Virus record (IMG/VR): IMGVR_UViG_2529293240_000017
Strand: one strand, 5' to 3'
DNA: 11,141 nucleotides
Origin: a virus
Lineage: Duplodnaviria > Heunggongvirae > Uroviricota > Caudoviricetes
The notes below the pieces were generated by a model. The model did no database searches, was not told where the DNA came from, and saw nothing but the letters and a program-made list of their open reading frames with translations. The position numbers and the translations under genes are program-made. Shown in pieces: positions 8,400 through 8,650 of the stretch (positions within the stretch are counted from its first letter, which is position 1; each line of letters starts with the position of its first letter).

Positions 8400-8650
8400 T
8401 TATTCTTCTGAAAAAGCAGAAAAGCCAGCTTTTATTCCGATCTCTTTCAATGCCTGTAATGAAGTGACAAACTCACCGTCGCGCAAGATAAATCCGTCCG
8501 TCACTCGGGCATCCACAAAATTAATTAACGCAGCCCCATTTTTTTGCAAACACACAATGCGGTAATGACTAACAATATTTCCATTTTCAACGCACACAGC
8601 ATAGAGGCCATCTTCACAAAAATTTTACGCAGTTCTTCGATGTTCATCAT
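8400..8650 (-). pseudogene. rem: rem-like small prophage gene interrupted by a 1-bp frameshift in a homopolymer
   Basis: ATG frame from 8650 reads MMNIEELRKIF and stops after 41 codons. Track ORF 8400..8597 continues in another frame (...CVENGNIVSHYRIV...). One extra base in the plus-strand A5 run at 8608-8612 would give a single ~83-aa ORF. Confidence 0.5.

Follow-up and report, generated by a model that had tools for sequence, protein, structure and literature searches.

The window analysed here, an 11,141-nucleotide stretch comprising bases 1-11141 of contig AFOW01000019.1 in the 2011 draft of Shigella flexneri J1713 (assembly GCA_000217895.2; draft protein EGM62129.1, locus tag SFJ1713_1650), carries a prophage neighbourhood of the Qin type with relB, relE, hokD, rem, a 92-aa ORF, a DUF968/ydfU gene, rusA, and Q (Table 1). 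The order relB-relE-hokD-rem-DUF968(ydfU)-Q is conserved. The rem segment is part of a prophage remnant bounded on one side by IS2 (position 9822 onward) and on the other by IS600 and IS2 copies (positions 1 to ~3300). Within this remnant, the minus strand at 8400-8650 encodes rem, which is cut in two by one missing homopolymer base.

Table 1. Features in and around the split rem gene, in window coordinates.
Feature	Position	Strand	Remarks
DUF968 (ydfU-like) gene	7082..8053	-	lineage-wide 78-bp in-frame deletion
Hypothetical prophage gene	8055..8333	-	92 aa, downstream of rem; phrog_1212
rem remainder, -1 frame	8400..8618	-	Rem residues 12-83 (CEDGLYAV...SAFSEE) and TAA stop; identical to CP100042.1 rem
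rem 5' ORF	8525..8650	-	41 aa; ATG at 8650; MMNIEELRKIF (11 genuine Rem residues), then 30 out-of-frame residues and stop
Second long rem run	8539..8545		T7 on plus strand, A7 on gene strand; intact here, A6 in another S. flexneri lineage
rem homopolymer	8618..8622		A5 on plus strand, T5 on gene strand; T6 in intact rem
Promoter-like site TTGAAG-18-TAGAAT	8730..8759	-	~80 nt upstream of rem ATG; consensus match only
A4 (plus strand) in terminator T-tail	8773..8776	.	second private one-base contraction; same-lineage assemblies have 5
Terminator-like hairpin	8781..8798	-	between hokD and rem (downstream of hokD, upstream of rem)
hokD	8867..9022	-	51 aa; upstream neighbour of rem
relE	9094..9381	-
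relB	9381..9620	-
IS2 copy	9822..11141	+	truncates prophage remnant beyond relB; cut by window end

The junction of the two reading frames reads A4T5 on the gene strand, corresponding to A5 followed by T4 (8623-8626) on the plus strand, and is placed by the motif CACAAAAATTTTACG at 8615-8629. The initial annotation had described a rem-like gene split by a single-base frameshift, and both frames are indeed present on the minus strand; it was also right to point to an A5 run on the plus strand, although the coordinates it gave (8608-8612) are off by ten. From the homopolymer, the -1 frame remains open to the TAA at 8400-8402 and reads CEDGLYAVCVENGN...SAFSEE, while the out-of-frame part of the 41-codon ORF is without homologue. 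One uninterrupted frame of 83 codons is found in sister assemblies and is broken in the window at the homopolymer.

With one T inserted into the gene-strand run, the sequence matches the 252-nt rem of S. flexneri CP100042.1 base for base, and the repaired coding DNA is likewise identical to the E. coli CFSAN064035 gene annotated as "rem: protein Rem" (WP_000980987.1). Across the 251 window bases of rem, this T is the sole coding difference from those references. The expectation that a single added base would restore an ORF of ~83 aa was therefore correct, as the repaired 83-aa product equals the intact Rem of sister strains. Repaired Rem is identical to E. coli K-12 Rem (b1561) at 78/83 residues (94%) over the full length and matches phrog_340 in a profile search (E = 8e-23). 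Precomputed PF27490:Rem matches fall on the 38-aa C-terminal piece as well as on intact copies; a scan against NCBIfam, which is without a Rem model, returned no match to Rem. Judged from its sequence, the match is one of homology and not of chance, and the gene is identified as rem, the antirepressor gene of Qin-type prophages. The earlier assignment to a Qin-like rem is thus borne out by sequence identity and by the adjoining hokD-relE-relB genes. K-12 Rem is an antirepressor: it lifts repression by DicA at the dicBF promoter ~165-fold and brings about filamentation that depends on DicB/DicF, relief at dicBp having been demonstrated for K-12 Rem only (Ragunathan et al. 2023, J Bacteriol, PMC10448788). 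None of dicA, dicC, and dicBF, the target described for Rem, lies in the 16.7 kb of contig examined.

Several further features of the remnant were recorded. Compared with E. coli copies, the DUF968/ydfU homologue is missing 26 codons (78 bp, in frame) close to its 5' end, with the deletion junction at 8017-8023 between 7-bp direct repeats; this deletion is real, since it is common to all assemblies of the J1713 lineage. On the relB side (9620-9822), IS2 connects the remnant to a truncated ydfJ, a gene adjacent to the other end of Qin in K-12. The late region of the remnant contains a PmrD-like ORF of 111 aa (4233-4568, plus strand; PF11183, phrog_4407) and a predicted ORF of 117 aa (5016-5369, minus strand; phrog_2873).

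Assemblies of the J1713 lineage were recognised by three markers, namely the 78-bp DUF968 deletion, a 262-aa Q protein, and the shared IS2 junction. Apart from the J1713 and SRR060542 contigs, all marker-sharing assemblies that cover rem have T6 and encode the 83-aa Rem; these are CP100042.1, AAVANU010000154.1 (with two similar places), and the Logan assembly of ERR048300 (with one similar place). The T5 variant is private to one assembly, with which the same-lineage assemblies disagree: within the lineage, it is confined to J1713 and the Logan contig of SRR060542, which is probably J1713's own read set. The SRR060542 contig carries both J1713 contractions, in rem and in the terminator tail, along with an extra T-run deletion at 7128, which suggests that this read set is ambiguous at homopolymers.

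J1713 was compared with CP100042.1, its closest complete relative, over 16.4 kb. Seven one-base gaps were found, and in 7/7 cases the base is missing in J1713; the seven substitutions all lie within IS copies. The 13.4 kb of unique DNA contains no substitutions and four one-base gaps, each in an A/T run of 5-7 that is shorter in J1713. An intergenic run has contracted from A6 to A5 in J1713, which is the odd one out given that K-12 agrees with CP100042.1; J1713 is also the odd one out in the terminator tail (T5 to T4), where sisters and nearly all examined E. coli loci have five, and in rem (T6 to T5). At the fourth site, a run of T7 or T6 with T6 in J1713, the odd one out is possibly CP100042.1, as K-12 has T6. 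Outgroup comparison hence identifies three of the four gaps as J1713 contractions, two of these three being non-coding. The unique stretch holds 66 A/T runs of at least five, of which 3/66 are contracted in J1713, so that approximately 1 in 20 such runs is contracted in the draft stretch examined. The remaining one-base deletions relative to CP100042.1 lie at ~2798, 2435, and 1106 within IS600/IS2 copies, the first of them splitting IS600 orfB into ORFs of 81 and 146 aa; either sequencing error or true variation among IS copies could account for them.

A similar pattern is seen in a second draft of the same 2011-2012 S. flexneri group. Between the 2011-2012 S. flexneri drafts K-1770 and VA-6, 12.1 kb contains no substitutions and four one-base deletions in K-1770. 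In both J1713 and K-1770, one-base homopolymer indels exceed substitutions and run in one direction (substitutions to indels, 0:4 and 0:4, respectively). The terminator-tail contraction recurs in K-1770, in the old draft of E. coli FVEC1412, and in an indel-rich E. coli locus, and this T5-G-T5-A-T4 tract looks like a recurrent miscall. Over 6.6 kb, VA-6 and the independent assembly CAJFAY01 are free of indels relative to each other, indicating that S. flexneri drafts of the 2011 era are not uniformly error-prone.

We consider it probable that the one-base gap in rem is a homopolymer under-call in the J1713 draft. During draft sequencing, the T6 run would have been under-called as T5 on the gene strand, and J1713 would then most likely carry an intact 83-codon rem; by the same token, the other private contractions of J1713 would be sequencing errors. 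In E. coli mutation-accumulation studies, real divergence brings roughly ten substitutions per indel, and a private tally of three contractions to zero substitutions is explained much better by under-calling than by evolution. The platform used for J1713 was presumably pyrosequencing or a similarly homopolymer-sensitive method, given the date, the centre, and the error pattern; the platform of J1713, AFOW, or SRR060542 could not be traced in the literature. The SRR060542 contig bears on this reading in two ways. It also has T5, and if it derives from accurate short reads of J1713, then T5 is real; on the other hand, sharing both contractions and adding one more is what would be expected if the reads came from the same isolate and were ambiguous at homopolymers. 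Genuine pseudogenisation, a slippage-prone tract, and a sequencing error had all been offered as explanations of the split gene, and the evidence favours the last, because T5 is private to the draft, same-lineage assemblies have T6, and the other private one-base contractions come without substitutions.

The strongest competing explanation, which we regard as unlikely, is a real -1 replication-slippage event in the T6 run, private to J1713, that would make rem a null pseudogene in a decaying, IS-ridden, Qin-like remnant. Shigella prophage remnants do decay, IS2 and IS600 both flank and interrupt the locus, which carries the lineage-wide DUF968 deletion, and T5 is found in two assemblies (AFOW and Logan SRR060542); in addition, Rem's published target, dicA and dicBF, is missing from the 16.7 kb around rem. 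Against such a mutation, the private branch of J1713 has no substitutions in 13.4 kb against three contractions, two of them non-coding, the terminator-tail contraction recurs in unrelated old drafts, and the same-lineage assemblies covering rem have T6, the SRR060542 contig aside.

Part of the case for a real lesion comes from a separate frameshift in a larger S. flexneri lineage, where independent assemblies show rem to be truly frameshifted at its A7 run. Contraction of this run to A6 is seen in VA-6, K-1770, K-404, LR861788.1, CAJFAY010000003.1 (with nine similar places), and AMWM01000069.1 (with three), and its product is a 41-aa protein, MMNIEELRKIFCEDGLYAVCVENGNIVSHYRIVCLQKMGLR. The change is inherited and real, as it is common to many independent assemblies in the same Shigella context, and rem looks to be a genuine pseudogene in that lineage. 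That A6 in VA-6, K-1770, and K-404 represents further draft errors was considered and rejected, since A6 is also present in independent assemblies. The J1713 T5 and the A7-to-A6 lesion are alike in affecting rem through a -1 homopolymer change that leaves a 41-aa truncated product, but they differ in run and in lineage, and T5 is confined to J1713 and one read set. The A7-to-A6 lesion shows that loss of rem is possible in Shigella and thereby makes a real lesion in J1713 more likely a priori. E. coli FVEC1412 (GG749217.1, 4001-4776) has a prophage region with two copies of rem separated by ~0.5 kb, of which the first carries A6 (41 aa) and the second is intact (83 aa).

An extension of this reading, which appears improbable, holds that T5 is real and that rem was knocked out twice independently in S. 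flexneri, by A7 to A6 in the larger lineage and by T6 to T5 in J1713. If true, such a double knock-out would point to selection against a DicA antirepressor during Shigella genome reduction, and thereby against the toxic dicBF division inhibitors being induced by accident.

The stability of both runs was assessed with short allele-specific queries on complete E. coli genomes, the T5 query being 44 nt long. The exact T5 allele was found in one of ~2274 complete E. coli genomes with rem, that of ET791, whose annotation marks rem and the two genes after it as frameshifted. The A6-specific query gave exact matches in 0/369 genomes with the A7 haplotype. Both rem runs are essentially invariant in finished genomes and do not behave as a hypermutable switch. 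T5 also occurs on at least four other, unrelated E. coli haplotypes, where some of the assemblies are otherwise clean-looking and several are riddled with one-base gaps; its presence on several unrelated haplotypes indicates that slippage at this run really occurs, or is at least repeatedly reported. In a further 108 complete genomes (E. coli B/BL21, C, and others), the alignment to the T5 query needs one gap although a 28-mer still seeds the match; this points to an in-frame allele in which the run is divided differently between A and T, possibly A5T5.

These data bear on the idea that the split gene is functional, either as a two-frame gene in which a -1 slip of tRNA-Phe on T_TTT restores Rem or as a phase-variable antirepressor switch, which we consider very improbable. 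A single P-site slip from TTT to the overlapping TTT would, as read from the sequence, give ...KIF-CEDG... and normal Rem, and the reported variant sites coincide with rem's two longest runs. The zero frame (CGT AAA ATT TTT GTG), however, contains no X_XXY_YYZ heptamer and would allow only a single-tRNA T_TTT slip, and the following 93 nt show no more folding stability than shuffled sequences (MFE -14.2 kcal/mol; shuffle mean -17.6; z = +1.29; 185/200 shuffles at least as good). Homologues have T6 and a single frame in K-12 and the sister strains, and ET791 is the sole exception among complete E. coli genomes with rem. Alignment to intact rem genes, which had been proposed as a check, likewise shows a single frame throughout, with no two-frame layout among the homologues. 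Programmed -1 frameshifting was rejected for want of a heptamer, downstream structure, and a conserved two-frame layout. Phase variation was rejected on the grounds that run lengths are essentially constant in complete E. coli genomes, the near-invariance (T5 in 1/~2274, A6 in 0/369) being unlike that of a contingency locus.

The preferred reading, a homopolymer under-call, carries little biological weight and amounts to an annotation caution for this 2011 draft, whose apparent pseudogenes, here rem, call for resequencing before they are taken as gene loss in Shigella. Either outcome is ordinary: if the gap is real, it adds one more pseudogene to a decaying Shigella prophage, and otherwise there is no feature.

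Set beside errors known from pyrosequencing and other flow- or signal-based drafts, the rem gap is alike in being a private one-base contraction in an A/T run of at least five, accompanied by other private contractions and no substitutions, with the same runs hit in unrelated old drafts. It differs in that the sister draft VA-6 is clean over 6.6 kb.

In comparison with K-12, the window gene occupies the same position as in Qin, following relB-relE-hokD and preceding the DUF968/ydfU and Q genes, and K-12 has the identical A4T6 run. Unlike K-12 rem, the window gene is split by one missing base, and the K-12 allele is without the A7 run, having CGAAAGAAT there. The prophage also departs from K-12 Qin in its extra 92-aa ORF and rusA between rem and Q, and in being joined to ydfJ' through IS2 on the relB side. 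Beyond E. coli, Ragunathan et al. reached Rem through iterated searches from the Salmonella Gifsy/Fels antirepressors GfoA and FsoA (PMC10448788). The similarity between Rem and GfoA/FsoA is remote (33% to an intermediate sequence), but their activities are alike, in that both relieve a short, non-cleavable repressor (PMC10448788).
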